The notes under the pieces are model-generated. The model saw nothing but the letters and a program-made list of their open reading frames with translations, was not told the DNA's origin and ran no database searches. Source: Candidatus Colwellbacteria bacterium (GTDB lineage Bacteria; Patescibacteriota; Minisyncoccia; UBA6257; Colwellbacteraceae). Taken from it: a stretch of DNA of 41,038 nt. The DNA lies in the NCBI GenBank assembly GCA_030700125.1, contig JAUYKE010000002.1, forward strand, positions 1-41,038, given 5' to 3'. The first letter of the stretch is position 1, and each line of letters starts with the position of its first letter. This document shows, piece by piece, positions 5,090 to 26,283 of this stretch. A program made the translations under genes and the position numbers.

Positions 5090-5095
5090 GGCGAC

Positions 5096-6403: not shown

Positions 6404-7006
6404 TTAGTCAAAAAGGATGCTTTTTACTGTCAATAAAATGATTTTTATGTCCGTCCACACGGACATTTCTTTGACGTATTTCATCTGGAGGCGGACTTTT
6501 TCTGGACGGATTTCTTTTAGATATTTTCTTTCTGCCTCTTCGGTAGTTTTAGCTCCGGCAAGCACTGCTCCTTCATCAATATTCCAAAGGGAAGCGTAGT
6601 CAGTCATTCCTGGCTTCACGCTGTAAACTATTTTTTCTTCGCCGGTGTAGAGCTTAGCATATTCCATCACTTCCGGGCGGGGACCGACCAAGCTTATCTC
6701 GCCTTTAACGACATTAATTAGTTGTGGTAACTCATCAAGCTTGAAGCGGCGAAGAAACTTCCCGGACTTGGTAACTCGTGGATCATCTCCTGGAGTTGAA
6801 GGTCCACCGATTTGCTCGGCGTTTACCACCATTGAGCGAAACTTAAAAATCCGAAACGGCTTGAAATTCTTGCCTGCCCTTACCCCTCGATAAAAAACCG
6901 GTCCGGGCGAATCAAGTTTAATCCAAATAGCAAAAGCCAAAAGAATGGGCGAGAGAAGTAAGAATCCGAGAGAGGCAAAAACCAGGTCAAGTAAACTCTT
7001 TATCAT
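6404..7006 (-). CDS. Small monotopic phosphoglycosyl transferase (bacterial sugar transferase, PglC/WbaP C-terminal type)
   Basis: 200 aa with one N-terminal re-entrant helix. Motifs [36 protein letters not shown]. Confidence 0.85.
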
Positions 7007-7095
7007 ACGAAAATGATTTTGACTTTTTCCTATAATTATTGCAAGTTGCTCTTGGCATAAGCCGATTTTTTTAGTTCTGTAACATCTATATATCG

Positions 7096-7418
7096 GAAGG
7101 GAGAAATTGCTATGCTAGAGTTGACGGAATTTCAGGCCGAGGTGGTGAAGGTTATGGAGAAACAGGGCGTAACGAACGTTCGTTACGCCGGTAAGGCGAG
7201 GAATCGGCGTTGCCGAGAGGACAATAGGCAACTTTACAAATTCCGAGGGGAAGATACGGGTGGATTCCCCGTCGTTGCCTATGCTTGCGGGTCTTGTAAG
7301 CAAGTAGAGATGTGGAATGTCGGGAGCTTCAAGGGGCGGCGCAGTTTTCCTTTGACGTAACTGATGTTCTTTGACCCCAGGGCGCGAAATCCTAGTCGCC
7401 CTGGGGTTTTGCGTTTTT
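7096..7418 (+). ncRNA. Unclassified structured RNA candidate with its own intrinsic terminator
   Basis: Found in the 385-nt gap in the minus-strand operon. Closing helix 7098-7110/7341-7353 (12 pairs including 4 G-U, 1 mismatch; the G-U pairs work only on the + strand). 8-bp helix 7125-7132/7238-7245. Hairpins at 7166-7189 (24-nt perfect palindrome), 7209-7232, 7247-7270 and 7282-7306. Terminator at 7375-7418. The region looks locally purine/GC-enriched. The family was not identified. Confidence 0.4.
7375..7418 (+). terminator. Rho-independent terminator, plus-strand specific
   Basis: 10-bp stem ccccagggcg/cgccctgggg, 12-nt loop, then ttttgcgttttt. The 3' arm and T-tract lie inside the last codons of the minus-strand methyltransferase gene. 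On the minus strand no T-run follows. Confidence 0.55.
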
Positions 7419-8195
7419 GGAGAATACAAAAACTGCTTTGAAGGCGTATTTTTTGAGGGAAGGAAAGATTTTAAAAAGAATTTTATCAATACCATTTGCT
7501 ATTCGGCATGCTGCTCGGCTACCTGGGAGGCGTTGAAGTGGGATAGTGAGAAGAGAAACGAAATGAAAGAAGTGGATCTGCTCGAGATCAAGATATTTTT
7601 TAGCCAATCCAAGATCCCCCATTTTCATAATGTGAGCGGCAGCCCAAAAGGTTCTCACCCCACGCTTTTTATTGAGCCAGCGCTTGAGGTTTGCCAGAGG
7701 GTGGTGGCCGAGAGTCTCAATGCCGATCAGCAATCCGCCTGGTTTCAAAATGTGGTGGATTTCTTGTAGTCCTTTTTCAAGCTCAATTGAGGAGAAGGTT
7801 CCGCCGTCAAAAACTATATCAAAAAAATTATCAGGAAATTCAAGCGCCTCCGCATCCATTTTAGTAAATCTTACATTGCTTACTTCATACTTCATTCTTC
7901 GTTCCTCAGCAATTTTTAAAGATTCTTCGGAGAGGTCAATACCAATAACTTCTTTAGCGCCCATTTTAGCGATTTGAATTGAGTGCATGCCGTGACCACA
8001 ACCATAATCAAGCACTTTTTTGCCGGGAACATATCGCTTGAGAAGTTTATAGAGAAACTGATAACTCGACATTCTCATAACATTTATTGCTTCAATGTCG
8101 AGGAGAGCTAGCTTCGGATGAACGGTCACTTTTGCCTGCCACCCTCGGGCCAACTTATCGTAATGGTTAATTTCCCGCTCCTTTCTTAAGTCCAT
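7392..8195 (-). CDS. Class I SAM-dependent methyltransferase
   Basis: Motif I VLDYGCGHGMHS, acidic loop IGIDLSE, post-I/II FDIVFDGG. Confidence 0.8.
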   Translation of the reverse strand: MDLRKEREINHYDKLARGWQAKVTVHPKLALLDIEAINVMRMSSYQFLYKLLKRYVPGKKVLDYGCGHGMHSIQIAKMGAKEVIGIDLSEESLKIAEERRMKYEVSNVRFTKMDAEALEFPDNFFDIVFDGGTFSSIELEKGLQEIHHILKPGGLLIGIETLGHHPLANLKRWLNKKRGVRTFWAAAHIMKMGDLGLAKKYLDLEQIHFFHFVSLLTIPLQRLPGSRAACRIANGIDKILFKIFPSLKKYAFKAVFVFSKNAKPQGD

Positions 8196-9197
8196 TTATT
8201 TGCCGGGGGTTAGCAATCTAAATGCTCCGATAATTGAGCCTAAACCGTAAGCGAAGTGCCTCGCGGCGAAGGCGAGGATTAAAAAGGGAAAGAGCAGGAG
8301 GTTTTTTTCGCGAGCGATGATTTTTAGGGAGAAGTAGAGGGCTGCGGTGAAATAGAGGGTGAGAATTACAACGGATATCCAGATTAGCGGCTTCCAAAAA
8401 ATTGAGCCGACAGCAGTAGCTAGAGTGGTGGAAACAAATACCAGCGGCGCGAGATGTCGGGGTTTAAAAATAGGGGAGCCGAATTTAAGAGGCAAAATTG
8501 CCCAGATGCCATCCAGGAAGTTTCTCCGCCAGAAAGAAATTATCGTTTTTTGTTTGGGATAGTAGGTGAGAGCAATATCCGGCGCTAAAAGAATCTTGCC
8601 TCCGGACTGCGTTAGGCGGAGATTGAAGTCAAAATCCTGGCTACGGATTAATCTTTCGTTAAAAAGGCCGACTTTGCGAAAGACCTCTTTGCGGTAGCAG
8701 ATGCCGTAAGCCGTGTCAGCCAATCGGGGTTTGTCGCCGCCTTGCCTGAAAGAACCACCGCCGCCCAAGGGGGAACCAAGCACTAAAATAATTGCTTTGG
8801 CGGCGAGAGTTTGAGCGGCGGGAACATTATAAGTCACGCCGCCTACGGCGGCAGTTTTATATTCTTCGAGATAGCGAACACACTTAGAAATATAATCCGT
8901 CGGATAAATTGTGTGAGCATCGCTTTTGGTGATGAAGTCGCCTTTGGCATTTTTGACTCCGATGTTTAAAGAAATGGGAGTAAAACCCTGAGGATTATCA
9001 AAGAGTTTAATGCGATTGTCTTTTTTCGCATAAAATTCGACTATTTCCCGCGAGTTGTCCGAGCTATTACTATTGACTGCTAGGATTTCAATCCTCTCTT
9101 TGGGGTAGTCCTGTTTGACTAAGGACTGAAGAGCGCGGGCAACAAATTCAGCTTCATTATGATACGGAATAATAATTGACACTAAAGGCGATTTCAT
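8196..9197 (-). CDS. Family 2 (GT-A) glycosyltransferase with C-terminal TM helices
   Basis: [13 protein letters not shown]..., SDNS, TKSDAHT (DxH/DxD-type), then 3-4 hydrophobic helices. Confidence 0.8.
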
Positions 9198-9232: not shown

Positions 9233-10231
9233 ATGAAAAAAGCCCTTATTACCGGAGCCACTGGCCAAGACGGAAGTTATCTAATCGAGCTCCTACTGGA
9301 CAAAGGATACGAGGTTCACGGAGTAGTTCGGCGGGCTTCATCGTCTAATACTTCCCGAATTGACCACCTTTATCAAGACCCGCACATAAATGGTGTAAAT
9401 TTCCATCTGCATTACGGAGATCTGGCTGATGGAAACGCCATTCGGAAACTGATTTATAAGATTCAGCCGGATGAAATTTATAATTTGGGTGCCCAGTCCG
9501 ATGTGGAGATCTCATTTAAAATTCCTGAATACACGCTTGATGTTACCGGGGTGGGAACATTGCGTCTGCTTGAAGCAATTCGAGAGTTTGAAGTCCAAAC
9601 TGGCAAGAAGGTAAAGTTCTATCAAGCCTCCAGCTCCGAAATGTTCGGTAACTCACCGGCCCCCCAGCATGAAAAAACAGCGTTTAATCCCCGAAGTCCA
9701 TATGGAGCGGCTAAGGTTCTTGCTCACGACATTACGAAGAATTACAGAGAAGCATACGGCCTTTTTGCCGTTTCGGGTATTTTGTTTAACCACGAATCGC
9801 CGAGGAGGGGTGAAAACTTTGTAACCAGGAAAATTACCCGCGGAGTTGCGAGAATTAAGGCGGGACTGGATAAGAAGCTTTACCTCGGGAATTTAGATGC
9901 TAAGCGGGACTGGGGATACGCGCCGGAGTATATGGAAGCGGCTTGGCTCATGCTTCAGCAGCCGGAACCGGATGATTATGTGATCGGCACGGGCGAGAGC
10001 CGTTCGGTTAAAGAGTTCGTGGGGGAGGCATTCAAGCATGCCGGAATGCCGGACTGGCAAAATTATGCTGAAGTTAATGACCCGCGCTACTTGCGGCCAT
10101 CTGAAGTTCACTATCTTCAAGCTGATCCAAGGAAAGCTAAAGAGAAATTTGGTTGGACAGCAAAGACGAAGTGGAATGACTTGGTAAAAATAATGGTTGA
10201 TCATGACTTGAAGGAATACGGGATTATTTAA
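9233..10231 (+). CDS. gmd: GDP-mannose 4,6-dehydratase
   Basis: [35 protein letters not shown] (the Ser/Glu catalytic pair is present), [27 protein letters not shown] chose the ATG at 9233 rather than the track TTG at 9176, which overlaps the divergent GT2 gene. Confidence 0.9.
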
Positions 10232-10237: not shown

Positions 10238-12454
<2,217 letters not shown>

Positions 12455-12455
<1 letters not shown>

Positions 12456-13576
12456 TAGATCAGTAATTTCTTAATTACTGCGGAGACGTAGCGGATTTCT
12501 TTTTCGGTATTGCCTAAACCGCTGGGGAGATATAAACCCTGTTTGGAAATTTTATCGGCGACTGGGAAATTACCATTGTTTTTCTCTGCAACTCTGCGGT
12601 ATTGGGGTTTTTTCCAGACCGGCTGACGGTGAAGGGGGTAGAAAAATGATCGCGTCCCGATGCCATGATAGGCAAGTTTTTTGGCGAAAGATTCGTTGTT
12701 AAAACCAGTGGATTTATCGAGGACCACGCCGTACATCCAGTAGATGTTTTTGGCGTAGGGTTTTTCGGCTGGGAGCTGAAGACCGGGAATGTTCGCGAGA
12801 AGCTTATTGTAGAGTGCTCCGTAGTCGCGTTTGATTTTTACTAACTTTCTAACGTTCTTCATCTGGGCAACGCCCAGAGCTGCTTGAATATTTGTTATCC
12901 GGTAATTTCTGGCGATTTCTGAGTGGTAATACCTCTTCTCCTTAACAAATCCCAAATCTCTTAACATGTCGGCCCTATCTTTAAAGTGTTTGCTATTCGT
13001 TAAAAGCATGCCTCCTTCGCCGGTTGTAATGGTTTTGTTGGGATAGAAGCTAAAACAGGAAATATCGCCGAAGCTACCGCACTTTTTACCCTTATATTCG
13101 GCACCAATTGCTTCAGCGGCATCTTCAATTATTAAAAGCTTGTGCTTACGGGCAATCTTTTTGATAGCGTCCATGTTGCAAGGATGGCCGTAAATGTGAA
13201 CACCCATAATGGCTTTAGTTCGCTTGTTAATCTTCTTTTCAATCTGGGAGACATCCATGTTCCAGGAATACGCGTCGGCGTCAACAAATACTGGAATGCC
13301 GCCGTAGCTAACCACTGCTACAGCACAGCTCATAATGGTGAAGGTGGGCATTATTACCTCGTCACCGGGCTTGAGTTCAATGGCGCCTATTGCTACTTCC
13401 AGAGCGGCGGTGCCGCTACTTACCGCCGTGCCATATTTTTTTCCGATGAAACTTGAGAATTTATTCTCAAACTCTTTGACAAAAGGGCCTTCCGAAGAGA
13501 TCCAGCCGGTTCTAATGGCCTCCGTTAGATATTTTGCCTCACCGCTAATAAAGAGCGGCCTGTTAACCGGAATCAT
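12455..13576 (-). CDS. per: GDP-perosamine synthase (DegT-family aminotransferase)
   Basis: Collinear with E. coli O157 Per/RfbE as I remember it: WISSEGPFVKEFENKF, HIYGHPCNMD, IIEDAAEAIGAEYKGK, FYPNKTITTGEGGMLLTN, NYRITNIQAALGVAQ. Confidence 0.75.
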
Positions 13577-13578: not shown

Positions 13579-13995
13579 CTATTCGAAATAGTGAGCTTTA
13601 TCATCTTCTCCGAGATATGGGCCTTGCTTCACTTCAATGATTTCAACATCTTTCAAAACCTCAATGCCATGGCCGCCATGAGCGAGAAGAATAATGTCGC
13701 CGCTCTCAAGCTCCCGGGCGTCAAGATAATTCCCTTCGTTGTCATAGAAGTCAACTCGACACCTGCCGCTTCGAATGAAAAGGACCTCCTGGGTATGCGT
13801 AATCTCGCGAGGGATAACCTTGTGAGTGTGTGGTTTAACAACATGCCCTGCCGGATGCTTTAAGAATCCAAGCTGTTTAGGGAAATCATCTGGAGTGAGA
13901 AAATTTACTCCTTCGTCAGCGTGAGTGTTGTAGATGATGATGGCGATAATATTATCGCCGTGTTTTATAGTCTCTTTCCCTTTATCGCGAGCCAT
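13579..13995 (-). CDS. Small cupin-fold protein (WbuC / sugar ketoisomerase-like)
   Basis: 138 aa with a His cluster (HPAGHVVKPHTHK) and beta-rich sequence typical of cupins. Co-translated between the GT4 gene and per. Confidence 0.55.
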   Translation of the reverse strand: MARDKGKETIKHGDNIIAIIIYNTHADEGVNFLTPDDFPKQLGFLKHPAGHVVKPHTHKVIPREITHTQEVLFIRSGRCRVDFYDNEGNYLDARELESGDIILLAHGGHGIEVLKDVEIIEVKQGPYLGEDDKAHYFE

Positions 13996-15220
13996 AATGG
14001 AGAGCTTCCTCGATTACCTCGGCCCATTTTTCCCCGTAGTTCTCGAGAGTAAGGTCTTTGGTTTGGGCGTAGCCCTTCTTAACCATCTCTTTTCTCAAAT
14101 TCTCATTGGTCCATACCTTATAAACCTTTTCGGCAATATCATCAATATTCTCGGGATTAAAGAGAAGAGCGGCATCGCCTACCTGTTTCGGTACCTCAAA
14201 GATATTGGCGGTTACAACCGGGGTGCCCAAGACCATTGCCTCCAGTGGCGGAAGAGTAGTTGGCCCCTGGAAAGCAGGGGAAACAAGGGCCACCGCCTTT
14301 TTATAGAGCGCCACGGTTTCAATATCTTCCACGTAACCAGGGTGGGTAATTAAGTTTCTTATGCCTAAGCCCTCCGCGAGATCCATTACCTGTTTAAAGT
14401 AGCGAGCGTGGTTGCCTTTATTGCTGCCTACCATCACCAGCGGAATTTCTACTCCGTGCTCTTGCTTAATCTTGTGGAGGGCTTTGAGGAGACGGTCGTG
14501 ATATTTCTGAGGCCAGAATTGGGCCGGGTAATAAATAAACTTTTCGGGTAGTCTGTATCTTCCTAGAAGTTTCGCGGCTTTCTCCTGAGTCATATCTTTG
14601 TTCTCGTAGGTATAACTGGGAGCAACGTAATAGATGGTCCGGATTTTAGTCACGGGCACCCTAGTAAAGGTATGAATATCGTCCGCTCCCTGGACAGAAT
14701 CGGCTACAGTCAAAAGGGAGTGGCGGGCATAGTAGGGATAGATAATGTCGCGGGTCGTCTTTGTTGCCCAAGTATATTCCGGCCAGCGGGGGTAATATTT
14801 ATGCATGTAGTCGGGGAGGCAGGCAAGATAAGGAATTTTAAAAGGCACGTCGAAAGAAAAGGGGGTAGAGATGACGAGAAGATCAATGTTTCTATGCTGG
14901 AGGGCTTTATCCAGCTCTTTTATCACCAATGAGTCCAACCCGGTGACAAGCCCCAGAAAGTGAATTGCTTTTCTTAAGGGGTTGTGGCGACGGCGGGGCA
15001 GGGCGATATATTCCGCCTTACCCGAGATGACGGGTTTTGGCTCCCCCTCGTAATAAACGATGGAGTATTGAAATTTATCCGGAGCGTAAGCGAGGAGTCC
15101 GTTGGCGACGCTTAGAGTAAACTGGAAGACGCCACCGCCCGATCTCACGGGGAATAGAATCCCGATGTGTTTTTTTACCCCCACACCAATATTGGATTGG
15201 GGAAGATTTTGGTTAGCCAT
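13982..15220 (-). CDS. GT-B glycosyltransferase, family 4 type
   Basis: C-terminal E-x7-E-like region (PPLEAMVLGTPVVTANIFEVPKQVGDAALLF). Length is typical. Confidence 0.8.
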   Translation of the reverse strand: MANQNLPQSNIGVGVKKHIGILFPVRSGGGVFQFTLSVANGLLAYAPDKFQYSIVYYEGEPKPVISGKAEYIALPRRRHNPLRKAIHFLGLVTGLDSLVIKELDKALQHRNIDLLVISTPFSFDVPFKIPYLACLPDYMHKYYPRWPEYTWATKTTRDIIYPYYARHSLLTVADSVQGADDIHTFTRVPVTKIRTIYYVAPSYTYENKDMTQEKAAKLLGRYRLPEKFIYYPAQFWPQKYHDRLLKALHKIKQEHGVEIPLVMVGSNKGNHARYFKQVMDLAEGLGIRNLITHPGYVEDIETVALYKKAVALVSPAFQGPTTLPPLEAMVLGTPVVTANIFEVPKQVGDAALLFNPENIDDIAEKVYKVWTNENLRKEMVKKGYAQTKDLTLENYGEKWAEVIEEALHYGSR

Positions 15221-15310: not shown

Positions 15311-16288
15311 TCATGAAGTTGTTGGCAGGGTTTTGCCTACAGCTTCTAGGTCACTAATAAGCATGAGGCGGATAAGTTCTTTGAATTTTACTTGAGGGTT
15401 AAAGCCGAAGGCATTCTTGGCCTTGGAGATATCGCCTACAAGAACCGTGGTAGTGGCTGGCCGAAGGAATTTTGGATTGATTTTGATGTATTGCTTTGGG
15501 TCGAGACCAACGGCGGCAAATGTTTCATCTACCCATTCTTGGACTGAATGGGTTTCAGCGGTGCAAATTATGTAATCGTCAGGTTTCGGCTGTTGCATGA
15601 TATTCCAGGCGGCTTCCATGTATTCCTTGGCGTAGCCCCAGTCAATTTGAGCAGAGAGGTCACCGAGTTCCAGGGAATTTTGGAGGCCGGCATAAATTCT
15701 AGCTACTGACTTGGTCACCTTTCTTGTTAAATATTCTTCCGGACGGCGAGGAGATTCATGGTTGTAGAAGATGGCGGTGGCGACAAACATACCGTAAGTT
15801 TCGCGGTAAAATTTGGAGATAACGTAAGCTAGAACTTTAGCGCAGGCATAAGGACTTTGCGGGTAAAAAGGAGTGGTTTCTTTTTGAGGTGTTTCCATCG
15901 CTTTGCCGAAAATATTTGAGGAGAGCGGCTGGAAGAATTTAATTCTGGGATTTACTTGCTTAATGATTTCGAGCAAACGCCCAACGGCGGCGCCGGTGAC
16001 GTTGTATTGAAAATCCACCATGTCGTAGCTCCAGCCGACATGGTCTTGGTCGGCTTCGTTGTAAATCTCTTCCGGATTAACTTCTTTAATCACTCGGTAG
16101 AGAGAGGTGGTGTCCAAAAGATCGCCGCGATGGAGGGTAATCTTATCTAGAATGTGTTCAATATTTCGAGTGTTGCCAGTGGCTGACTTGCGATACAAGC
16201 CGTGCACTTCATATCCTTTTTCCAGTAAAACCTCGGCTAGATATGAGCCATCTTGGCCAGTGATACCGAGAATTAAAGCTTTTTTCAT
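15311..16288 (-). CDS. Gmd-family short-chain dehydrogenase paralog with a divergent active site
   Basis: [49 protein letters not shown] are Gmd-like. Where Gmd has [16 protein letters not shown], this protein has PLSSNIFG (Glu to Asn, codon 15914-15916), and NLGAxSHV is replaced by NEADQDHV. Confidence 0.8.
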   Translation of the reverse strand: MKKALILGITGQDGSYLAEVLLEKGYEVHGLYRKSATGNTRNIEHILDKITLHRGDLLDTTSLYRVIKEVNPEEIYNEADQDHVGWSYDMVDFQYNVTGAAVGRLLEIIKQVNPRIKFFQPLSSNIFGKAMETPQKETTPFYPQSPYACAKVLAYVISKFYRETYGMFVATAIFYNHESPRRPEEYLTRKVTKSVARIYAGLQNSLELGDLSAQIDWGYAKEYMEAAWNIMQQPKPDDYIICTAETHSVQEWVDETFAAVGLDPKQYIKINPKFLRPATTTVLVGDISKAKNAFGFNPQVKFKELIRLMLISDLEAVGKTLPTTS

Positions 16289-16326
16289 GATGCTGGTTTA
16301 TCTTAACCACGTTTTTCAAAAATGAG

Positions 16327-16351
16327 AAGACCCCGCCCACGGCGAGGTCTT
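16327..16351 (-). terminator. Probable intrinsic terminator after the C-methyltransferase gene
   Basis: Stem aagacc(c)cgcc/ggcgaggtctt with a 3-nt loop. On the minus strand it is followed by ctcatttttg. Confidence 0.45.
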
Positions 16352-16381
16352 GTACAAGTATAACGACTTACGATGCCGCCA

Positions 16382-17584
16382 TTACTTCTTCGCGCTAACT
16401 ATTCGGAATTTTGGGAGAGGGACAATAAATTTACCGCCTTTCTTCAGCCACTCCTTTTCTCTTTTGTAAAAAGTATCAAAGAAAGCCCAAGGGGAAACGA
16501 AAAAATAATCAGCATCTTTGCGAGCTTTCTCTTCATTCACGATGGGAATTAAAGTGCCCACGGTATACTTACCCCATTTCTGTTCGTCTTTATCGGCTGC
16601 GGCTTTAATTAATTTATTATTCAAGCCGTAGTATTGGAGAATAGTATTACCTTTGGTTGAGGCACCGTAGACATAAACCTTTTTACCTTTTTTCACTTCA
16701 CGCTTAATGAAATCAACCGCCTTCTTTTTATTTGCTTCCAGTCGCTTGGCGAAAGCTTTGTAATCGTATTTCGGCTCCTTGTATTTAATGCTGCCTTTCT
16801 TCAGATGGCGGGCGAAGAGGCGATAACTGCCGCCGTTAATGCTATTCTCTTCTACTTTGAATATTTCCAAACCATTCTTCTCAAAAAAGTAGACGAGTGA
16901 AGGATAAGAGTAATATTCAAGGTGTTCGTGGCAGATGTTTCCGAGATCATTGGTATTAATCATCGGAGCAAGAGTCATAAGCTGGGCGATGAAGACGCCG
17001 TTTTTATCAAGCGCTTTCACGGCATCGGTAATGAACTGATTTGGATTTTCCATGTCGTAAAACATGCCGATGGCGGTAATAACTTTTGCTTTTTTGTCGC
17101 CGAATTTTTTCTGCCAATTTTTGTGGGTCCAGAAGTCGGCGATAACGTGAGGCGTCACTTTCCTCAAATATTTAATAAGATTGGTAGCGGGTTCGCAGCC
17201 AACGCGAATCACCGATTTTGGATAGAACTTCAGCATCGTGCCGTCGTTGGCACCGATATCCAAAACAATGTCGCCCTTTTTAAGTTTGGCCATCTTCGTT
17301 GCTACTTGGGCGATCTCTTTCAAGTCAGCGGTAATAACGGGATTAATGCCCGAGCGGTACCAATAGTGGCGAGCGTAGAGCAGTTCTTGGGGAGCGGTGT
17401 GTTTTAGCTGGAGAAGGTCGCAATTTTTACAGTGGACCAGTTCCAGCGGGGCGCGGGGCGCTTTCTCCTTTTTACTCTTAACAAAAGTGGAGATATAAAG
17501 ATTGCCGATACTAAAGACCTTCTCAAGTTTACTTGAGCCACAAACGCGGCAAGTTTTTCGAGTAGTATGGCGAGGGATCTTCAT
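16382..17584 (-). CDS. NDP-hexose C-methyltransferase (TylCIII/EryBIII-like; Zn-ribbon + SAM MTase + C-terminal domain)
   Basis: N-terminal CRVCGS...CKNCDLLQL zinc ribbon, SAM motif VLDIGANDGTML, 400-aa length and a C-terminal Rossmann-like domain (KKVYVYGASTKGNT). Confidence 0.75.
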   Translation of the reverse strand: MKIPRHTTRKTCRVCGSSKLEKVFSIGNLYISTFVKSKKEKAPRAPLELVHCKNCDLLQLKHTAPQELLYARHYWYRSGINPVITADLKEIAQVATKMAKLKKGDIVLDIGANDGTMLKFYPKSVIRVGCEPATNLIKYLRKVTPHVIADFWTHKNWQKKFGDKKAKVITAIGMFYDMENPNQFITDAVKALDKNGVFIAQLMTLAPMINTNDLGNICHEHLEYYSYPSLVYFFEKNGLEIFKVEENSINGGSYRLFARHLKKGSIKYKEPKYDYKAFAKRLEANKKKAVDFIKREVKKGKKVYVYGASTKGNTILQYYGLNNKLIKAAADKDEQKWGKYTVGTLIPIVNEEKARKDADYFFVSPWAFFDTFYKREKEWLKKGGKFIVPLPKFRIVSAKK

Positions 17585-18740: not shown

Positions 18741-18780
18741 GAAAAACCGCCGTTAACAGCGGTTTTTCTTGTGTTGTTTT
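18741..18780. terminator. Hairpin between convergent genes (likely bidirectional terminator)
   Basis: gaaaaaccgc / gcggtttttc stem with an 8-nt loop, an A-run before and a T-run after. Overlaps the last codons of the minus-strand methyltransferase gene. Confidence 0.55.
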
Positions 18781-19562
18781 CCGATAAAGTTAAAACTCTC
18801 TTTATCCGGAGAATAGCCGGAAGAGATTTCCTCTAATCCATATTTTTTAAAAATTTTAGGATAGGGGTGGATGTAGCTTTGACTGGATAGCTTAATGCTT
18901 TTGATAAGTTCCGAGAGGTCGCGCTTTTGGGAGGCGTCGTTATAGACGACGTAACCCCTAAAGTGTTTTTGAATAATTCCGCAGACTTTCTCAAGATCAA
19001 CGGGATTAAGATAGGCAAAGATACCATAGCTGAAAATTAACCCGGCTTTTTTCAGAATATCTCGGTATTTTTCGATGTTCCTTACGTCATCAACAAAAAC
19101 CTTGATATGGGGATTATTTAGCGCTTTGGCGTGATCCACAATTTCCGGCGTAATATCCACTCCGTAGAGCTCTAAGTGGGGATATTTATTGGCGAGGTGC
19201 TCCAAATGACGGAGAAAACCGCACCCTAACTCAAAAACTGTTTTCACATTTTTGGTTTCAATAAGGTTCTCAATCTCTTTGAGGTAATATTCGGGGATGG
19301 GCGTCTGGTTGAAACTTGCGAGATATTTCGCACCCCACTCTTTCCAGAATTTATTGTTTAATTCTTCACTGTTTAAGCGGCGGGTTTTATAAAAGTAGTA
19401 ATCAAAAAAAGAGGTATTCAAGAGCTTTCGGAGTGGCAGAGTATTGTGGAATTGTTTCGGTTTGTAGCCAAAATAAAAAAGAGCGGCTCCAAGAGTTTTA
19501 GTGAGGAGACTTTTTAGGGGAGTGGGAAGGATACGATTCAGAAATTTTAGTAGAGATCTCAT
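18753..19562 (-). CDS. Class I SAM-dependent methyltransferase
   Basis: Motif I VFELGCGFLRHL, acidic loop YGVDITPE. 4-nt overlap with the sulfotransferase gene. Confidence 0.7.
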   Translation of the reverse strand: MRSLLKFLNRILPTPLKSLLTKTLGAALFYFGYKPKQFHNTLPLRKLLNTSFFDYYFYKTRRLNSEELNNKFWKEWGAKYLASFNQTPIPEYYLKEIENLIETKNVKTVFELGCGFLRHLEHLANKYPHLELYGVDITPEIVDHAKALNNPHIKVFVDDVRNIEKYRDILKKAGLIFSYGIFAYLNPVDLEKVCGIIQKHFRGYVVYNDASQKRDLSELIKSIKLSSQSYIHPYPKIFKKYGLEEISSGYSPDKESFNFIGKQHKKNRC

Positions 19563-20305
19563 TTAGTTCTGTAACCGAGGTGCTTCATGGTTTTTCCGGC
19601 TATGGCGTGAAAAATCTTAAGCTCAAGCCGGGAAAATTGATTTTTAAAGTCTCCGACAACACCTTTGCGGAAAGGCATACTTTTGCTTTCCTCTTTACCT
19701 TTCTCGCGGCCGGAGAGCTTATCAAAGGTAAAGTTATCAATTGCTTCTTGGATGAGCTTATCGCTGGCTTTGACTTCTAGGTAATTGAGGATTTCTTTCA
19801 GGGTTTCTACGGGGTGGGATGATACATTCTCATATTTTACCCGGTGGTATTTAATATCCGGTCTTTCGGTCCAGAGGCGGATGAATTTTTTCCATTTGTG
19901 AGCAGTCCAGGCGTAGCTCAAAGGGCGGATAGAGCTCAGCGTATAAAATAACCTTTCTTTTAAAGTTGTCGGTGGCTCAAGATTGACCAATTCTTTATAT
20001 CGGTAGTAGGCGGAAACGGCGATGTCGCGGGGGTCACGGGTAAGGAAAATAATCTTGTCGGTTAAGTTAACGTTTTTGGCCGGCCAGTTGTGGGTCTTAA
20101 TGACCATGGAGTAGGGGCTTTTGGGGCGATTGGGGAGACTGCCTCCAGTTAGGGAGATGACCCGTTCATCAGTTGTATAGAGCATGCCTTTTAGAAAATC
20201 GTAGGGCTCAATGTATTTGGCATTCAAAATATAGCAGAGCATGTAGCTTAGCCAGCCCTGTCCAGAACGGCCGTAGTCGGCTATAAGGATTACTTTTTCA
20301 GACAT
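19559..20305 (-). CDS. PAPS-dependent sulfotransferase
   Basis: 5'-PSB-like loop ADYGRSGQGWL and 3'-PB motif FLTRDPRDIAVSAYY. 8-nt overlap with cysC. Confidence 0.75.
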   Translation of the reverse strand: MSEKVILIADYGRSGQGWLSYMLCYILNAKYIEPYDFLKGMLYTTDERVISLTGGSLPNRPKSPYSMVIKTHNWPAKNVNLTDKIIFLTRDPRDIAVSAYYRYKELVNLEPPTTLKERLFYTLSSIRPLSYAWTAHKWKKFIRLWTERPDIKYHRVKYENVSSHPVETLKEILNYLEVKASDKLIQEAIDNFTFDKLSGREKGKEESKSMPFRKGVVGDFKNQFSRLELKIFHAIAGKTMKHLGYRTK

Positions 20306-20810
20306 TGGTAATCAGGTTGTATACTTTTTCGACGGCTTCTGCAACGGTGGTTTTGGAGGTGTCAATCACGAGGTCGGGGTCTTGAGGGCGTTCGTAGGGG
20401 GTATTGGGAGAGACACCGATTAGGTTGGAAATTTCGCCGGCTTTAGCTTTGGAATAAAGATTTTTAGTATCGCGTCTGATCAAAACTTCTATCGGACAAT
20501 CAATGAAAATTTCTTTGTAATCTTCGACGAAAATCTCGCGGGCTTTGTCGCGAGTTTCCTGGAAAGGAGAGATGACGGCGACGACGATAATGTCATAGTC
20601 GTTTTTGATAGATTCACAGTAATCAATAATTTTGTAATTGTTTTCTAGGATTGCCTCCCTGGAGAATTGATTAGTGGTACCGGCTTTGGCGCGGAAGCGA
20701 TCACCATCAACATGATGAACGGAATAGCCGTCATCGGCTAATTTCTTTTCAACTCTCTCGGCAATCGTGCTTTTACCGGAACCGGACATCCCGGTGAACC
20801 AGATAATCAT
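20298..20810 (-). CDS. cysC: Adenylyl-sulfate (APS) kinase
   Basis: IIWFTGMSGSGKSTIA P-loop, HVDGDRFR, VISPF. Typical 170-aa length. Confidence 0.9.
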   Translation of the reverse strand: MIIWFTGMSGSGKSTIAERVEKKLADDGYSVHHVDGDRFRAKAGTTNQFSREAILENNYKIIDYCESIKNDYDIIVVAVISPFQETRDKAREIFVEDYKEIFIDCPIEVLIRRDTKNLYSKAKAGEISNLIGVSPNTPYERPQDPDLVIDTSKTTVAEAVEKVYNLITNV

Positions 20811-23044
20811 TATTTCTCAAAAAGGGTAGTGGGGGATTTTTTGTACCAGTTTTCCAGCATGTCAGCGATCTCGGGGCGCATGATCTCGCGAGGAATCTTT
20901 TTGCCGCTTAAGAGATGCTTCCTGGCGGCGGTGCCGCTAATCAAAGTTCTCGATTTTACCGAGTGGCGGCATTTGTCTGTCACTTTTTTGCAGAGTTTAC
21001 AATAGTTGGCCGCTTCCAACATGATTGGGGTAATGCCAATATCTTTTATACCCAGATCATAAAAGATTTTTTGAGATGCATCGGGGGCGTAGAATTCGCC
21101 GACGCCGGTGTGGTCACGGCCAATAATAAAGTGGCTGCAGCCGAGATTCTTGCGGCAAAGGGCGGTAAAGACCGCTTCACGCGGTCCGCTGTAGCGGGAA
21201 TAAGTTTGGAAGGCGCCGACAACTACCGGGTAGGGCTCGTAGACACCATTCTCCACCATAATTTGATAGGCACCCACAATGGCATCCGGCTTGAAGTCAC
21301 CGGTTTTCTTGGGACCGACCACAGGACTGATAAAGAGGGCATCGGCGTTCACTCGCTTTAAGGCTTCTTTCTGAATAAATTCGTGGCCACGGTGAGGGAC
21401 GTTGCGAGTGTGAAAACCGACAATTGTTCGCCAATCAAAATTTTTAAATATTTGACGAGATTGTTTTGGAGTTAAAGTGTAAGAAGCAGGGAAAAGCCGC
21501 GGTTTTTTTAAAAGGAAAACTTCGCCGCTTACAATGTAGTCACCAAGCTTAAAGATACGGGCGACGCCCGGATGGACGTGGCTATCGGTGCCGAACCATC
21601 GTTTAGCGGTTTCCTCCAAGTCAATTTTTTGGATATCCGAAACCTCCAGCACGGCATAGCGTTCTTTATCACCTTTGCGACCAAGAGCAATGCGCTGGCC
21701 TTTCTTGAAACTAATTTCCTTTTTTGGAAGCTGGAAGATAATAGGCAGAGTCCAGACTACCCCATTGGGCAAGCGGTAATCTTCTAAGACAGAGTTCATT
21801 TCCCGCTTATTCATGAAGCCGCGGATAGGAGAATAAACACCATCAGTGATTTGAGTAACATCCAAGAGAATCTCTTGGCTTACATCAACTTTGTGGAGCT
21901 TTTTGGCTTGCGCCTGCATCGCTCCGTCGGCGTAATTCTGTACTAGCTTTCCGCCGTGGGGCTCAACCAATGTGAAAGAGTAGTCATAGAGATCACCGTC
22001 GTAGCGTTGGCTTTTCTCGCGGCGGTGGAGATAATCTTCGGTTTCCCTAATAACACCGGCGATCATGCGGACAGACTCAACGGGATACTTGCCAACAGCC
22101 GTTTCCGCAGCAAGAACTAAGCCATTTGCTCCGCTCATTAATGTGCTCGTGATGTCGTTGACTTCAGCTCGAGTGGGCTGGCCGGCGTGAATCATGGTTT
22201 CTAGAAGATTAGTGGCGACGTAAACTGGGGTATTGGTTTCTTTGCCGATGTTTAGAATGTGCCTTTGGGTGAGGGCGATTTCTTGAATAGGCACTTCGCG
22301 AGAGAGATCGCCTCGATCGATTAGTATGGCGTCGCTTGCTTTGGCAATCTCTTTCAGGTTTCGGATGCCGGTCATACTCTCAATCTTGCTGACAAGGGAG
22401 ATTGGATAAGGAAAAAAGGAGCGGAGCCGATCCACGCCCTCCTTACTAGTGGCAAAAGATAAGGCGTAGTTATTGATTTTGAATTTTTTGCCGATTTTAA
22501 AAGCGGCGAGATCTTTCTTTGTAAATGGAGGGAGCTTAATGGGCCTGTCCGTGGCAACACCTTTATTGGAGCCGATAACGCCGCCGGAGAGAGTCCGGGC
22601 AAGAACTTTACCGGACTTGATTTGGATGACTTGGACGATAACCGACCCAAAATCAATGTAGAGAAGATCGCCTTCCTGGAGAGTTTTCGCCGGATCAATC
22701 GGATAGAGAGGAATTTTGGTTTCAGTACCAAGCTCACTTGCCTTGACGAGAGAAACCAAGCTGTGAGTCTTAATCTCAAGTTTGCCGCCTCTCATTTTAC
22801 CGTTTCGGATTTGCGCGCCTTCAGAATCCAGCGAGAGCGGTTTTTTAGTCCATGACTGGATCTGCTTTATGAGGCGCGGCAGGTCTTTAGCTTGAGTGTG
22901 GGAGAGGTTGAGCCGGAAGAGATCAACGCCTGACTCGTCCATTTTTTGGATTATTCTCTTATCTGTGGAGGCAGGGCCGATAGTAGCTAAAACCTTGGTT
23001 AGCCTATTTGGTTTTTTCTTTGAGGGCATATTGAATGAGTTCAA
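20810..23044 (-). CDS. Fusion protein: pyruvate-kinase-like catalytic barrel (no C-terminal regulatory domain) + sulfate adenylyltransferase (ATP sulfurylase)
   Basis: N-terminal half: TKVLATIGPAS, FRLNLSH, LDSEGAQIR, VSKIES, DRGDLSREVP, PTRAEVNDI, LAAETAVGKYP. C-terminal half: VEPHGGKLV, HTRNVPHRGHEFI, GPREAVFTALCRKNLGCSHFIIGRDHTG. The start may be the second Met (23029). Confidence 0.8.
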   Translation of the reverse strand: MNSFNMPSKKKPNRLTKVLATIGPASTDKRIIQKMDESGVDLFRLNLSHTQAKDLPRLIKQIQSWTKKPLSLDSEGAQIRNGKMRGGKLEIKTHSLVSLVKASELGTETKIPLYPIDPAKTLQEGDLLYIDFGSVIVQVIQIKSGKVLARTLSGGVIGSNKGVATDRPIKLPPFTKKDLAAFKIGKKFKINNYALSFATSKEGVDRLRSFFPYPISLVSKIESMTGIRNLKEIAKASDAILIDRGDLSREVPIQEIALTQRHILNIGKETNTPVYVATNLLETMIHAGQPTRAEVNDITSTLMSGANGLVLAAETAVGKYPVESVRMIAGVIRETEDYLHRREKSQRYDGDLYDYSFTLVEPHGGKLVQNYADGAMQAQAKKLHKVDVSQEILLDVTQITDGVYSPIRGFMNKREMNSVLEDYRLPNGVVWTLPIIFQLPKKEISFKKGQRIALGRKGDKERYAVLEVSDIQKIDLEETAKRWFGTDSHVHPGVARIFKLGDYIVSGEVFLLKKPRLFPASYTLTPKQSRQIFKNFDWRTIVGFHTRNVPHRGHEFIQKEALKRVNADALFISPVVGPKKTGDFKPDAIVGAYQIMVENGVYEPYPVVVGAFQTYSRYSGPREAVFTALCRKNLGCSHFIIGRDHTGVGEFYAPDASQKIFYDLGIKDIGITPIMLEAANYCKLCKKVTDKCRHSVKSRTLISGTAARKHLLSGKKIPREIMRPEIADMLENWYKKSPTTLFEK

Positions 23045-24311
23045 TGGTATTTTTAAAACCTTCTTGGGTCAACTTGGGCATTTGCTTTTTGTACTTGCCG
23101 GATCTAATTAGTTTCAGTTTTTCTTCCAGCGTGATTTTACTTGTGACATAATCGATTCCTGGAAAATCTTTGTAATAATCTCCCATCAGTTCACGATTTG
23201 GATCGAGAGAAAGAATTGGCTTCTTTGGGTACTGGAGAGAGGCGGCAAAAAGAAGGGTGCTCAGTGATGGCGGGAGACCGATAATAACATCAGCTACGTT
23301 TAGGTAAGTCTCGGTCGGGCCATTTAGCTCCATTATTTTTACTTTGGGCGAGATTGATTCAAGCTCTTGCTTGAGAAATTCATAATTTTTGGTGGCTGGA
23401 TGAGTAGAAATAATAATTTTCCAATCCGGTAGGACGCTTTGAGCTAGCTGGAGAAGAGCTCTCCAACTGTTGAGCCGTCTTTCATTTGAGATAAAGAATA
23501 AATTTCTTCTGAAGCCTGCTTCGATATCTCCCGGGAGTAAAACAAGGGCAACTTTCTGCTTCTCTCTTGGCAGGGTTTGAAGCGGGGAAGAGAGAAAATT
23601 GTCAAAGAATTTTTTACTGGTAAGGAGGGGATGGGGAAGAATGATTAATTTCTTTTCAGGGACGCCATTTTTGGAATAGATGTCCCATTCTCTTTTATTG
23701 AAAACTGTTTGGTAGCTGGCATCTCTCATTCCAGACTCTCCTTTTAGGAGGATGTGGCTTGATTTACCGAAGAACGGTCCTTGAAAGTTTGCTAATGGTA
23801 AGAGCCAGTAATAAAAGAAATGGCCGATTAGCCTCCGTGTTTTAATGAGATTGAGCCGCAGGGGTAGGGGAAGAAACCTTGGAAGTCGGAGGTGCGCTTC
23901 GCCTAGAGTAATCCATTTAGCTGACTGGCCGGGAAAGGCGCTAAGAGCAGCTTGGATGGCAATGTTAACTGCTCCAACTTTCTTTGCTTCCCGGAAAAGA
24001 TACATCTCAAATAAATAGAGGTCGTTGGCGACAATGATCGCTTTGGGCTTGTACCGATGAATTACCTCTTTGGCCAAGCGGGACAGCTCCCGGTTCCTCC
24101 TTAATAAACTGGCTTTTTCTTCAGTATGCTGGTGAACGGGGATGATTTTTTCCAATCCGGGAAAAAGTTTTTTGTTTTTTACAATTTCCTCGGTAAATTG
24201 ATCAAGCTTTTCTGATAAAAGCACTACCGGATACTGGCTGGCCAATTCGTAGAGATGACCGATTAAAGTGGTGCGAAAGGAACGGGGAACAGAAGTGTAG
24301 AAAAGAATCAT
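23004..24311 (-). CDS. Hypothetical protein, possible GT-B-fold transferase with a TagF/KpsS/sialyltransferase-like HP motif
   Basis: 435-aa ORF in the operon. WKIIISTHPATK (strand + HP) and DVIIGLPPSLSTLLFAA resemble the C-terminal half of TagF/capsule/bacterial sialyltransferase-type enzymes. No confident family call. Confidence 0.4.
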   Translation of the reverse strand: MILFYTSVPRSFRTTLIGHLYELASQYPVVLLSEKLDQFTEEIVKNKKLFPGLEKIIPVHQHTEEKASLLRRNRELSRLAKEVIHRYKPKAIIVANDLYLFEMYLFREAKKVGAVNIAIQAALSAFPGQSAKWITLGEAHLRLPRFLPLPLRLNLIKTRRLIGHFFYYWLLPLANFQGPFFGKSSHILLKGESGMRDASYQTVFNKREWDIYSKNGVPEKKLIILPHPLLTSKKFFDNFLSSPLQTLPREKQKVALVLLPGDIEAGFRRNLFFISNERRLNSWRALLQLAQSVLPDWKIIISTHPATKNYEFLKQELESISPKVKIMELNGPTETYLNVADVIIGLPPSLSTLLFAASLQYPKKPILSLDPNRELMGDYYKDFPGIDYVTSKITLEEKLKLIRSGKYKKQMPKLTQEGFKNTIELIQYALKEKTK

Positions 24312-24320
24312 CTCCGACGC

Positions 24321-25820
24321 TTACGGGCGGAACCCCGACCCCTTTCGGGGGTCGGGGTTTATCTCCGACAGGACCTTTTCCAGAGAATCGCAAACGTAGA
24401 TGACCTCTTCTTCGGTTAGATTATTATGGAAGGGTAGGGCGATGGTCGCTCCGGACACTCTTTCGGTGATCGGAAAATCACCCGCTTTGTATCCAAATGT
24501 TCCGACGTAGAGTGGCTCAAGATGAATCGGTGGGAAGCGGTCGCGACAGTTCACACCTCTCTTCCCCAGCTTAGCGATAACCTCGTTTCTTTCTTGGCGG
24601 GAGAATTTTTCCGGGTTGAGCTGGATAACATAGACAAACCAGCTCATTTTATTGATTTCAGGGCCAACATAAGGAATGTGAACGTTCTTGATTTTTTTCA
24701 GACGTTCATTGTAAAGAGAGGCAATCTGGCTTCGCCTTGCTAAAATTTCTTCGATCCGTTTCATCTGGGTCACACCCAGGGCGGCGGAAAGTTCAGTCAT
24801 TCTGTAGTTGTAGCCGAGTGTTGTATAAGCAAGCGAGCCGGGTTTTTCTTCTCTCCCCTGATTTCTCATGCTCCGACAGAGTTCCGCCACTTCATCGTTA
24901 TTAGTAACAATTATCCCTCCTTCAGCAGTGGTGATCTGTTTATTGGGGGTAAAACCAAAAGCGGCGATATTACCGAAAGATCCGGCTTTTTTACCTTTGT
25001 ATTCAGAGCCGAGCGCCTCGCAGGCATCTTCAATCACAATCAAGTTATGCCTTTTGGCGATATCAAGAATTGGATCCATGTCGGCGACGTAGCCGAAGAT
25101 ATCAACGGGTAAAATTGCCTTTGTTCGAGGAGTAATTTTCTCTTCAATCTTTGCAGGGTCAATGCAGAGGGTTTTCTCGTCAATATCAACAAAGACCGGT
25201 TTGGCTCGCTCAAATAGGGGAGCATTAGCTGAAGCGATAAAACTGAAGGGAGTAGTAATTACCTCATTGCCGTCTTTAATTTCGAAAGCTCTCATAGCCA
25301 AGTGAAGTCCACTTGTACCGCTATTTACCGCTATTGCGTGCTTCATGCCAATGTAATCGGCGAAAACTGATTCGAACTCTTTGATCTTCGGACCAATAGT
25401 TAGATAAGGAGAGGAAAGAACTTCTTTAATGGCTTCTACCTCTTCGGAGGTTATGTCTTGCTTGGATAGGGGTACTTGTTTTAATTCGATAAGAAGCACT
25501 ACGTCCGCCATCGTCCCGTCCGGATTAACGATGGGAATCTGATAGATGCTTTTCTCGGTCATTGTTTTCAAGAGCTCCGAAGGGGAAGTGTCTTTGGTAG
25601 CGGTGATAAGACTGGTAATCATAATATCGGTGACGGAGGAATTGAGATTTTTGCCGGCCAGTACCGCTTCCCGGATATCGCCATCAGTTACGATGCCCGC
25701 TAATTTTTTCTGGTCGTCAATAACAAAAGCAGCCCGGATACCGCTTTGATAGATAGAATTTATCGCGTCCTTGATCGTTTTAGACCTATGGACGCAGATG
25801 ATATTGAGGTCTTTGGTCAT
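24321..25820 (-). CDS. CBS-domain pair fused to a DegT-family sugar aminotransferase
   Basis: Residues ~1-115 are CBS-like (GIRAAFVIDDQKKLAGIVTDGDIREAV; IYQIPIVNPDGTMADVV). The rest is DegT (AIAVNSGTSGLHLA, VIEDACEALGSEYKGK, FGFTPNKQITTAEGG). Confidence 0.8.
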   Translation of the reverse strand: MTKDLNIICVHRSKTIKDAINSIYQSGIRAAFVIDDQKKLAGIVTDGDIREAVLAGKNLNSSVTDIMITSLITATKDTSPSELLKTMTEKSIYQIPIVNPDGTMADVVLLIELKQVPLSKQDITSEEVEAIKEVLSSPYLTIGPKIKEFESVFADYIGMKHAIAVNSGTSGLHLAMRAFEIKDGNEVITTPFSFIASANAPLFERAKPVFVDIDEKTLCIDPAKIEEKITPRTKAILPVDIFGYVADMDPILDIAKRHNLIVIEDACEALGSEYKGKKAGSFGNIAAFGFTPNKQITTAEGGIIVTNNDEVAELCRSMRNQGREEKPGSLAYTTLGYNYRMTELSAALGVTQMKRIEEILARRSQIASLYNERLKKIKNVHIPYVGPEINKMSWFVYVIQLNPEKFSRQERNEVIAKLGKRGVNCRDRFPPIHLEPLYVGTFGYKAGDFPITERVSGATIALPFHNNLTEEEVIYVCDSLEKVLSEINPDPRKGSGFRP

Positions 25821-25845
25821 TTTGAATAGAAGTTAAAATTTAGAA

Positions 25846-26283
25846 TTAATTATTACTCTTTTTTTCTAAAATGATTTTTCCACCCTGAACCACGCCCATT
25901 ACTTTCGCGGGCACACCCCAGGCGGCAGAGTTATCGGGTATGTCGGTCTTGACTAAACTGTGAGCGCCGATAATGGAATTCTCTCCGATCGTTACGCCGG
26001 GTAAGATAGTCGTACCGGCGCCGATTTTCGCGTTTTTCTTGATGGTGACTAGCCCTTCTTTTTGGTCAATAGTGGAGACTGAATAAATCCGACAGCCAGC
26101 TCCGATTTGGACATTGTCTTCAATGGTCACTCCGTTAACAGCATGGATGTAAGTAAAGGCGCCAATATCTGTTCTGGATCCTAAACGGAAAGAATCTACG
26201 CCTTTTACAACCCAATGCCACTTGGTCATCTCGCCATCTACTATTTTCGGCGGTTGCCAATTTTCAAATCTATCTTCAGGCAT
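25846..26283 (-). CDS. Left-handed beta-helix (hexapeptide-repeat) acetyltransferase
   Basis: Repeating [LIV]G-x4 hexapeptides (IEDNVQIGAGCRIY, KNAKIGAGTTILPGVTIGENSIIGAHSLV). 145 aa. Confidence 0.75.
   Translation of the reverse strand: MPEDRFENWQPPKIVDGEMTKWHWVVKGVDSFRLGSRTDIGAFTYIHAVNGVTIEDNVQIGAGCRIYSVSTIDQKEGLVTIKKNAKIGAGTTILPGVTIGENSIIGAHSLVKTDIPDNSAAWGVPAKVMGVVQGGKIILEKKSNN

Follow-up and report, generated by a model that had tools for sequence, protein, structure and literature searches.

A GDP-mannose 4,6-dehydratase homolog of Candidatus Colwellbacteria without the dehydration glutamate, and its association with a sugar C-methyltransferase

The window analysed here is a 41,038 nt stretch of DNA from a Candidatus Colwellbacteria bacterium. 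It is contig 13 of a genome with 96% completeness and a size of 555 kb, which is typical of bacteria of the Candidate Phyla Radiation (CPR). The window encodes two members of the family of GDP-mannose 4,6-dehydratase (hereafter GMD), a canonical Gmd (Gmd1) and a paralog, Gmd2N. Judged from its sequence, Gmd2N is a GMD by descent that is without the residue for dehydration, and it is very unlikely to function as a GDP-mannose 4,6-dehydratase. Its gene lies next to that of a sugar C-methyltransferase (CMT). Homologs of Gmd2N form a clade, termed here the ADQD clade after a conserved motif, which we classify as widespread, mislabelled and uncharacterised, and in which we see a dehydratase that has neofunctionalised and has a methyltransferase as its obligate partner. 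The function favoured here, with moderate confidence, is that of a non-dehydrating C4 ketoreductase that acts on the product of Gmd1 and CMT and serves as the dedicated redox partner of CMT.

For dehydration, GMD relies on only one additional catalytic residue, a Glu within an [ST]SE motif (PMC8987622). The sugar pocket of nucleoside diphosphate (NDP)-sugar enzymes in the superfamily of short-chain dehydrogenases/reductases (SDR) has been described as a "heptagonal box", in which the sugar is ringed by red, yellow and green walls, among others (PMC8987622). The red wall is the segment after strand 4, the yellow wall is the [ST]xE segment and the green wall is the C-terminal Arg-containing segment. 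The title of the structure entry 6gpk describes a human GMD E157Q crystal that holds unreacted GDP-mannose. The features of the two Gmd proteins and of CMT in the window are as follows.

9233..10231, plus strand: canonical gmd (Gmd1); TIGR01472 494 bits; reads ASSSEMFG and NLGAQSDV
15311..16288, minus strand: Gmd2N (P0001), GMD-derived extended SDR of the ADQD clade, 325 amino acids (aa); Pfam GDP_Man_Dehyd (PF16363), 346 bits
15446..15469, minus strand: FLRPATTT, C-terminal Arg motif of Gmd2N; the Glu of RP[AT]EV[DE] is gone
15635..15649, minus strand: QIDWG, with Ile215 for the Arg of RDWG, which is Arg in 97% of canonical GMDs
15836..15850, minus strand: YACAK, sequence motif with the catalytic pair Tyr147/Lys151 kept
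15905..15928, minus strand: yellow-wall motif PLSSNIFG; Ser123 of the redox triad kept, Asn125 for the dehydration Glu, Pro121 for Ala
16037..16060, minus strand: red-wall motif NEADQDHV for NL[AG]AQS[HF]V; neither Asp80 nor Asp82 varies within the clade
16184..16267, minus strand: GITGQDGSY Rossmann motif and R33-K34-S35 NADP 2'-phosphate motif, both kept (sequence motifs)
16327..16351, minus strand: terminator-like hairpin with an 11-bp stem, 7 G-C pairs, followed by a T-run
16382..17584, minus strand: CMT (P0002), TylCIII/MtmC/TcaB9-type NDP-4-ketohexose C-methyltransferase by Pfam, 400 aa

A first-pass annotation of the window, made from the sequence alone, had reported Asn in place of Glu at codon 15914–15916, the NEADQDHV segment in place of an NLGAxSHV block, and retention of the Rossmann, YxxxK and NHESPRR blocks. 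Translation of the window places the Asn125 codon exactly there, and the other motifs are all present. It had also described the gene at 9233..10231 as a canonical gmd and the gene upstream of Gmd2N as a TylCIII/EryBIII-type C-methyltransferase, and both assignments are borne out by the family matches given here. HMMER alignments of Gmd2N with Arabidopsis MUR1 (1n7g) and human GMD (6gpj) are gap-free over both altered motifs, thus the Glu has not merely moved to a shifted position. Identity to the solved GMDs is 42–47%, with E about 1e-90.

An AlphaFold model of Gmd2N, built from an alignment of the clade, has a pLDDT (predicted local distance difference test) of 94.3. It superposes on the ligand-bound GMDs 1n7h, 1rpn and 6gpj with a TM (template modeling) score of 0.95 and a root-mean-square deviation of 1.3–1.6 Å. 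The TM score on the reductase Rmd (2pk3) is 0.89, at 24% identity. The TIGR01472 gmd equivalog model has a cutoff of 415 bits; Gmd1 scores 494.1 bits and Gmd2N 358.4 bits, so that the NCBI model accepts the former and rejects the latter. With respect to EC 4.2.1.47, Gmd2N has the SDR fold, the NADP motif and the Ser/Tyr/Lys triad, but it has neither the dehydration Glu nor a score above the equivalog cutoff.

The altered motifs are shared by all of the nearest relatives. The 120 closest database homologs (63–93% identity) have Asn at the Glu site, apart from a few with His or Thr, and NEADQDH[VA] is found in 120/120. Because all of these homologs carry altered motifs, the substitution in Gmd2N is not a chance event. 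Where the source gives a name for them, it is in every case "GDP-mannose 4,6-dehydratase". Across an alignment of approximately 200 members of the family (199 sequences), Glu is paired with A-[AG]-Q-S and non-Glu residues with A-D-Q-D, almost perfectly. A FastTree phylogeny rooted on Rmd-like sequences places the A-D-Q-D sequences in one clade of 101 leaves with a support of 0.998 and a long stem, which is nested inside the Glu-bearing GMDs. Basal lineages of the clade have Asn, and later branches switch to His, Thr, Met, Leu or Ser. Counts at position 125 are 72 Asn, 17 Thr, 6 His, 2 Met and 1 Leu in the clade, with Glu in 0/99, versus Glu in 100/100 canonical GMDs. Such drift is expected at a site that no longer has a catalytic role.

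A comparison of the clade with the canonical GMDs shows further differences in the pocket segments. In the red wall, position 78 is Glu in the clade and Leu in canonical GMDs, and positions 80 and 82 are both Asp (99/99 each) where canonical GMDs have Ala and Ser, respectively. Around the yellow wall, Pro replaces Ala at position 121 and a hydrophobic residue replaces Ser at position 122. Position 186 changes from Phe to Tyr, position 215 from the Arg of RDWG to Ile, Val or Leu, and position 279 no longer has the Glu of RP[AT]E. The GxxGxxG motif, R33, the [RK]34-S35 NADP motif, S/T123, Y147, K151, N176-H-x-S-P-R-R and K190 are kept at 90% or more in both groups. With the wall motifs altered and the NADP motif and triad kept, several walls of the sugar pocket were rebuilt and the redox core was left untouched. 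By analogy with GalE (R231, R292, D295) and RmlB (R231, R297, H300), the RDWG Arg and the RPxE Glu presumably correspond to pyrophosphate and ribose contacts; this analogy is taken as a lead only. If these roles are right, the grip on the nucleotide would be changed as well.

A divergent subclade of about 21 representatives (P0136, P0147, P0150, P0151, P0173, P0197 and others) reads P-x-S-A-[T/M/L]-M-F-G, and the same sequences read NEADQD[N/D/S] and NHDSPRR. A metagenome scan with the alignment of this divergent T-subclade, in which the second pattern was generic, returned only canonical Glu-bearing GMDs. Literature searches found no paper on the ADQD clade and no published characterisation of it.

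CMT has a three-domain architecture consisting of PF08421 Methyltransf_13 (Zn-ribbon), PF13489 Methyltransf_23 (S-adenosylmethionine-binding) and PF08484 Methyltransf_14 (C-terminal). The best solved match is MtmC (4rv9, E=4e-41), with KijD1 and TcaB9 at about 1e-22, and CMT aligns over its full length to 4rv9, 5t64 and 3ndi. The zinc Cys pairs (CxxC...CxxC; C12, C15, C52 and C55) are kept, as is the HEH motif, where CHEHLEY of CMT stands opposite YHEHLSY of MtmC. We take the His of this motif to be the catalytic residue, as in TcaB9. The characterised relatives (4rv9, 5t64, 3ndi) use NDP-4-keto sugars as substrates, and their products are still 4-keto sugars.

Two archaeal genomes have an interrupted CMT ortholog (L021:7524-9902 in genome G020, and G014:C3:80425-82728 at locus L015). 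The N-terminal and C-terminal halves are about 1.1 kb apart within open frames of about 800 aa, and the NCBIfam matches of the L021 open reading frame (ORF) are to proteins that contain inteins. It would be unusual for a sugar C-methyltransferase to hold an intein.

The gene context of Gmd2N relatives was compared at 35 genome loci. Relatives with at least 55% identity almost always have a CMT ortholog (50–90% identity) before them, usually directly upstream, and the two genes often overlap. Four loci at 50–52% identity encode canonical GMDs and have no methyltransferase. A whole-genome search shows a CMT ortholog in 30/30 of the other genomes with the ADQD clade. At least six CMT::Gmd2N fusions were found. 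Five (L009, L012, L019, L030 and L031) are single open frames of 738–759 aa, and the L009 fusion has the Pfam order MT_13, MT_23, MT_14 and GDP_Man_Dehyd; P0124 is a further fusion among the database proteins. The complete co-occurrence, the frequent overlaps and the natural fusions tie Gmd2N functionally to CMT.

Canonical Gmd is also associated with the clade. A canonical-type Gmd is present in approximately 24 of the 30 clade-bearing genomes, compared with a gmd above the equivalog cutoff in 98/401 (24%) of the sampled genomes of the phylum to which the window belongs (the tally includes an unpublished genome, G184); this is a tendency and not a statistic, as the genomes are interrelated and metagenome-assembled genomes may be incomplete. 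At four loci with a canonical Gmd but without an Fcl gene, the Gmd is in the same operon. The gene order is Gmd1-NUDIX-x-CMT-Gmd2N-cupin-DegT in L025, Gmd1-cupin-DegT-...-CMT-NUDIX-Gmd2N in L014 and CMT::Gmd2N-DegT-Gmd1 in L019, and L035 has an arrangement of this kind as well. Genome G330 (L128:4880-7186, G330:C3, minus strand) has a CMT homolog (35–39% identity) with a canonical Glu-bearing Gmd 67 nt upstream of it; a stop codon separates the two, and their order is reversed relative to the CMT::Gmd2N fusions. Genome G280 has the order CMT, canonical Gmd, a further Gmd-like paralog with Leu at the Glu site and other wall changes than Gmd2N, and a DegT-like gene. The enrichment, the shared operons and the adjacency to CMT in G330 and G280 make canonical Gmd, and in the window Gmd1, the likely source of GDP-4-keto-6-deoxymannose. 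The Leu paralog of G280 (L129:4396-5334, G280:C37, minus strand) reads AGSSLMFG, has the red wall HLASRVDT and has no RPxE. From these motifs it may represent an independent loss of the dehydration residue.

The proposed route has three steps. Gmd1 would convert GDP-mannose to GDP-4-keto-6-deoxymannose. CMT would then place a methyl branch beside the keto group; the precedent of its family points to C3, with C5 as a further possibility. Gmd2N would reduce the C4 keto group with NADPH, using its intact Ser123, Tyr147 and Lys151, and the resulting GDP-6-deoxy-C-methyl-hexose would be handed to the glycosyltransferases encoded nearby in the locus. That the redox step runs as a reduction and that GDP is the carrier, as well as the site of methylation and the product, we infer from the motifs and gene contexts. 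Delivery of hydride from a GMD scaffold would be expected to give the manno (rhamnose-type) configuration at C4; with methylation at C3 the product would be an evalose-type GDP-6-deoxy-C-methyl-D-hexose. As a speculation, Asn, Thr, Met, Leu or His at position 125 might make room for the extra methyl group near C5/C6 or, alternatively, strip charge next to the quaternary carbon.

Two considerations narrow the possible functions. With no base for H5 abstraction, the scaffold can only shuttle hydride between NADP(H) and C4. The CMT family needs and releases a 4-keto sugar, so that Gmd2N either consumes the CMT product or makes the CMT substrate. Consumption, i.e., 4-ketoreduction, is favoured because canonical Gmd is enriched and often in the same operon, because the cofactor motif is still of the NADP type, which from its sequence would suit a biosynthetic reductase better than a net oxidase, and because the G280 operon holds exactly the three predicted enzymes. 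Reports of latent 4-reductase activity also favour it. According to work cited in PMC3539893, 4-reductase side activity has been reported for some GMDs, and such an activity offers an evolutionary path to a reductase of the Gmd2N type.

The first-pass annotation had proposed a similar route, in which the first Gmd makes GDP-4-keto-6-deoxymannose, the methyltransferase branches it and the paralog acts as 4-ketoreductase or epimerase. The improbability of dehydration by the paralog, its tie to CMT and the likely role of canonical Gmd all agree with that route. The premise that SDR reductases lack the acidic residue does not stand, as Rmd (2pk3) retains it. Loss of the Glu therefore argues against dehydration and does not by itself indicate a reductase. 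The changes of the RDWG Arg and the RPxE Glu, the conserved LegC/Per-like aminotransferase described below and the in silico status of the virenose route of Coxiella had not been remarked on.

Several observations weigh against the ketoreductase function. By sequence, Rmd keeps both the Glu and the canonical walls, so the changes in Gmd2N are no generic reductase signature. Loss of the RDWG Arg and RPxE Glu, together with three new acidic residues in the pocket, suggests that the substrate or its binding may differ from that of a plain GDP-6-deoxyhexose. The conserved LegC/Per-like C4 aminotransferase could itself use the methylated 4-keto sugar, which would make a reductase unneeded. Five or six clade-bearing genomes showed no canonical Gmd, although two of these have a LegB-like dehydratase nearby and the assemblies may be incomplete. 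Many Patescibacteria have CMT homologs of 44–49% identity beside a small glycosyltransferase of family 2 (GT2) with no N-type partner. In the window itself, 93 nt that include the hairpin separate the stop codon of CMT from the start of Gmd2N; the two genes are adjacent and are not translationally coupled here, whereas in relatives they overlap or are fused.

The most credible alternative, in itself unlikely, is that Gmd2N is a C4 dehydrogenase or transient oxidase, which oxidises C4 of a GDP-hexose or GDP-amino-6-deoxyhexose without dehydration and thereby makes the keto group that CMT needs. The keto group would afterwards be transaminated by the DegT_2 aminotransferase or re-reduced by Gmd2N in a redox-neutral cycle. 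This would account for the SDR, CMT and aminotransferase travelling together, often with a small polyprenyl-phosphate-type GT2 as in ArnA/ArnB/ArnC, and it covers the genomes where canonical Gmd was not found. Fusion would suit the channelling of a labile keto intermediate, and E78, D80 and D82 could bind an amino sugar. However, the NADP(H)-type motif is kept, whereas the known net C4/C3 sugar oxidases use NAD+. The strong enrichment of canonical Gmd, often in the same operon, also argues against it, as does the presence of another 4,6-dehydratase near the clade in two of the Gmd-less genomes. More doubtful is a "borrowed keto" C-methylation, in which the clade protein and CMT act as one unit to oxidise C4 of a GDP-(amino)deoxyhexose, methylate the adjacent carbon and re-reduce C4. 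Here Asp80-x-Asp82-His83 would bind the amino group or a metal and replace the lost pyrophosphate-binding Arg. If true, this would be a new SDR activity and the first defined biosynthetic step for CPR/DPANN surface glycans.

The remaining alternatives are all improbable. Obligate pairing and fusion with CMT, and the loss of two presumed nucleotide contacts, would be consistent with a non-catalytic or regulatory partner that binds a nucleotide sugar or cofactor as a scaffold or substrate-presenting subunit, but conservation at 90% or more of the Rossmann motif, NADP motif, triad and NHESPRR across a deep clade is the pattern of an active oxidoreductase, and we consider this function highly improbable. 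Lower again in probability is a GDP-sugar C4 epimerase that would oxidise C4 and re-reduce it from the opposite face, as GalE does, with only the Ser/Tyr/Lys triad. An [ST]...Yx3K arrangement without an extra acid/base is the 4-epimerase fingerprint (Table 1 of PMC8987622), but epimerisation has no logical link to a CMT that needs and releases 4-keto sugars, and the known GDP-sugar 4-epimerases belong to the GalE family (8RDG), to which Gmd2N matches only at E=7e-8. The least probable function is a 4,6-dehydratase with a relocated base, for which Asp82, Asp80 or, in some members, the His at position 125 would be examples. In its favour, the loss of the Glu coincides exactly with the gain of two invariant Asp residues. 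Against this, position 125 drifts to Thr, Met and Leu, the equivalog model rejects Gmd2N, a separate canonical Gmd is kept in most genomes, and red-wall residues are catalytic in no described dehydratase (PMC8987622).

The 4-ketoreductase function can also be viewed in the context of the neighbouring genes. The other genes around Gmd2N in the window are listed below; the sugar-nucleotide genes on the plus strand are adjacent to gmd1, and those on the minus strand are downstream of Gmd2N.

10238-10717, plus strand: GDP-mannose mannosyl-hydrolase-like NUDIX protein, below the NCBIfam cutoff
10704-11666, plus strand: GDP-L-fucose synthase-like SDR, below the NCBIfam cutoff
11622-12455, minus strand: 277-aa protein with no family assigned
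12455-13576, minus strand: LegC/Per-like aminotransferase DegT_2
13579-13995, minus strand: WbuC-like cupin
13982-15220, minus strand: GT4 glycosyltransferase

The minus-strand order of CMT, Gmd2N, GT4, cupin, DegT_2 and 277-aa protein is identical in L007. ORF clustering of the 35 loci shows that the following genes recur in the module.

25/35 loci: DegT aminotransferase
19/35 loci: GDP-mannose mannosyl-hydrolase-like NUDIX protein
17/35 loci: GT2 of about 240 aa
11/35 loci: WbuC-like cupin
9/35 loci: Fcl-like SDR

The aminotransferase is almost as conserved in the module as CMT and is often adjacent. It is closest to LegC, a GDP-sugar C4 aminotransferase, with a score under the LegC cutoff. 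The small GT2 is closest to AglJ, dolichyl-phosphate hexose transferases and ArnC. GDP as the carrier is suggested by the descent of Gmd2N and by its company of a GDP-type NUDIX protein, a LegC-like aminotransferase and a canonical Gmd. The genome has a single NTP_transferase gene, directly upstream of a PMM/PGM (phosphomannomutase/phosphoglucomutase) gene (G000:C34:10646-12690; L148:1498-3544). It encodes a 227-aa protein of a broad archaeal GlmU/AglF/RmlA-like type and does not settle the carrier. The glycan island of the window requires several different NDP-sugars, so that all of them may be activated by this single enzyme acting promiscuously.

The rest of the window (2133-9197 and 18753-34436) is one large glycan island. 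It has a PglF-like dehydratase with an aminotransferase, split transketolase-like genes and a PglC-like priming transferase. A 3'-phosphoadenosine 5'-phosphosulfate (PAPS)/sulfotransferase module includes a pyruvate-kinase::ATP-sulfurylase fusion. There is also a NeuB/NeuC/CMP-transferase nonulosonic-acid module, an NDP-sugar dehydrogenase and two Wzx-type flippases. The large share of a 555-kb genome that is given to the island suggests that the surface sugar matters for an episymbiotic lifestyle.

The clade is thus labelled with an activity whose defining residue it lacks. As a result of this mislabelling, metabolic reconstructions of CPR, DPANN and other lineages would over-count the entry steps to GDP-fucose and GDP-rhamnose and miss a branched-sugar pathway. 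The clade also represents a clean natural case of a dehydratase repurposed by one catalytic loss and four correlated pocket changes, and the natural fusions supply a built-in functional partner, which makes the system experimentally tractable. No route to GDP-linked C-methyl sugars has been defined biochemically, and literature searches turned up no characterised pathway for such sugars; the CMT-Gmd2N pair could supply the missing enzymology.

Among known systems, Gmd2N has most in common with GMD itself, i.e., the fold, the NADP motif, the Ser/Tyr/Lys triad and NHESPRR at 42–47% identity, and it is nested in the GMD tree. It differs from GMD in having no dehydration Glu, in the NEADQDHV wall, in Ile for the RDWG Arg, in the lost RPxE Glu and in the pairing with CMT. 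Rmd is likewise an extended SDR that acts on a GDP-4-keto-6-deoxyhexose, and its NADPH-dependent C4 reduction is the chemistry proposed for Gmd2N. Unlike Gmd2N, Rmd keeps SSE, HLAAKSSV and LRPSEV; the solved reductase 2pk3 reads GSSEEYG, HLAAKSSV and LRPSEV, and an Rmd-like protein of locus L038 aligns to it at E=2e-92. Identity of Gmd2N to Rmd (2pk3, 6x3b) is 24% at E=1.7e-24 and the wall motifs differ, and an assignment as an Rmd ortholog was rejected. If Gmd2N is a reductase, it arose independently of Rmd, out of a dehydratase. An assignment as a GalE-type GDP-sugar 4-epimerase, such as PhGal4E_1 (8RDG), was rejected as well, at E=7e-8 to enzymes that are of the GalE family.

The ArnA(SDR)/ArnB/ArnC system resembles many of the related loci, where a DegT aminotransferase and a small GT2 of the polyprenyl-phosphate type are likewise grouped with a C4 SDR that does not dehydrate. 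The likeness is one of layout only, as the related loci have no decarboxylation or formyltransferase and have a C-methyltransferase. ArnA keeps the T-S-E wall.

The virenose route of Coxiella burnetii, an in silico proposal only, consists of the Gmd CBU0689, the TylCIII-like CBU0691 and GMER (PMC3539893). It is similar to the module proposed here in combining a Gmd, a TylCIII-like C-methyltransferase and an SDR reductase on a GDP-sugar. However, its Gmd keeps the Glu, and its last enzyme is a GMER/Fcl-type epimerase-reductase and not a Glu-less Gmd paralog. In the pathways with MtmC, TylC3, EryBIII, TcaB9 and KijD1, of which CMT of the window is a full-length family member with an intact zinc site and HEH motif, the logic shared with the present proposal is that of a 4-keto sugar followed by C-methylation and 4-ketoreduction. 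The characterised members act on dTDP-sugars in actinomycete antibiotic pathways with unrelated reductases as partners, whereas the module in the window has a GDP-mannose-derived context, belongs to loci for cell-surface glycans in CPR bacteria and DPANN archaea, and pairs the methyltransferase with a GMD derivative, in some cases as a fusion.

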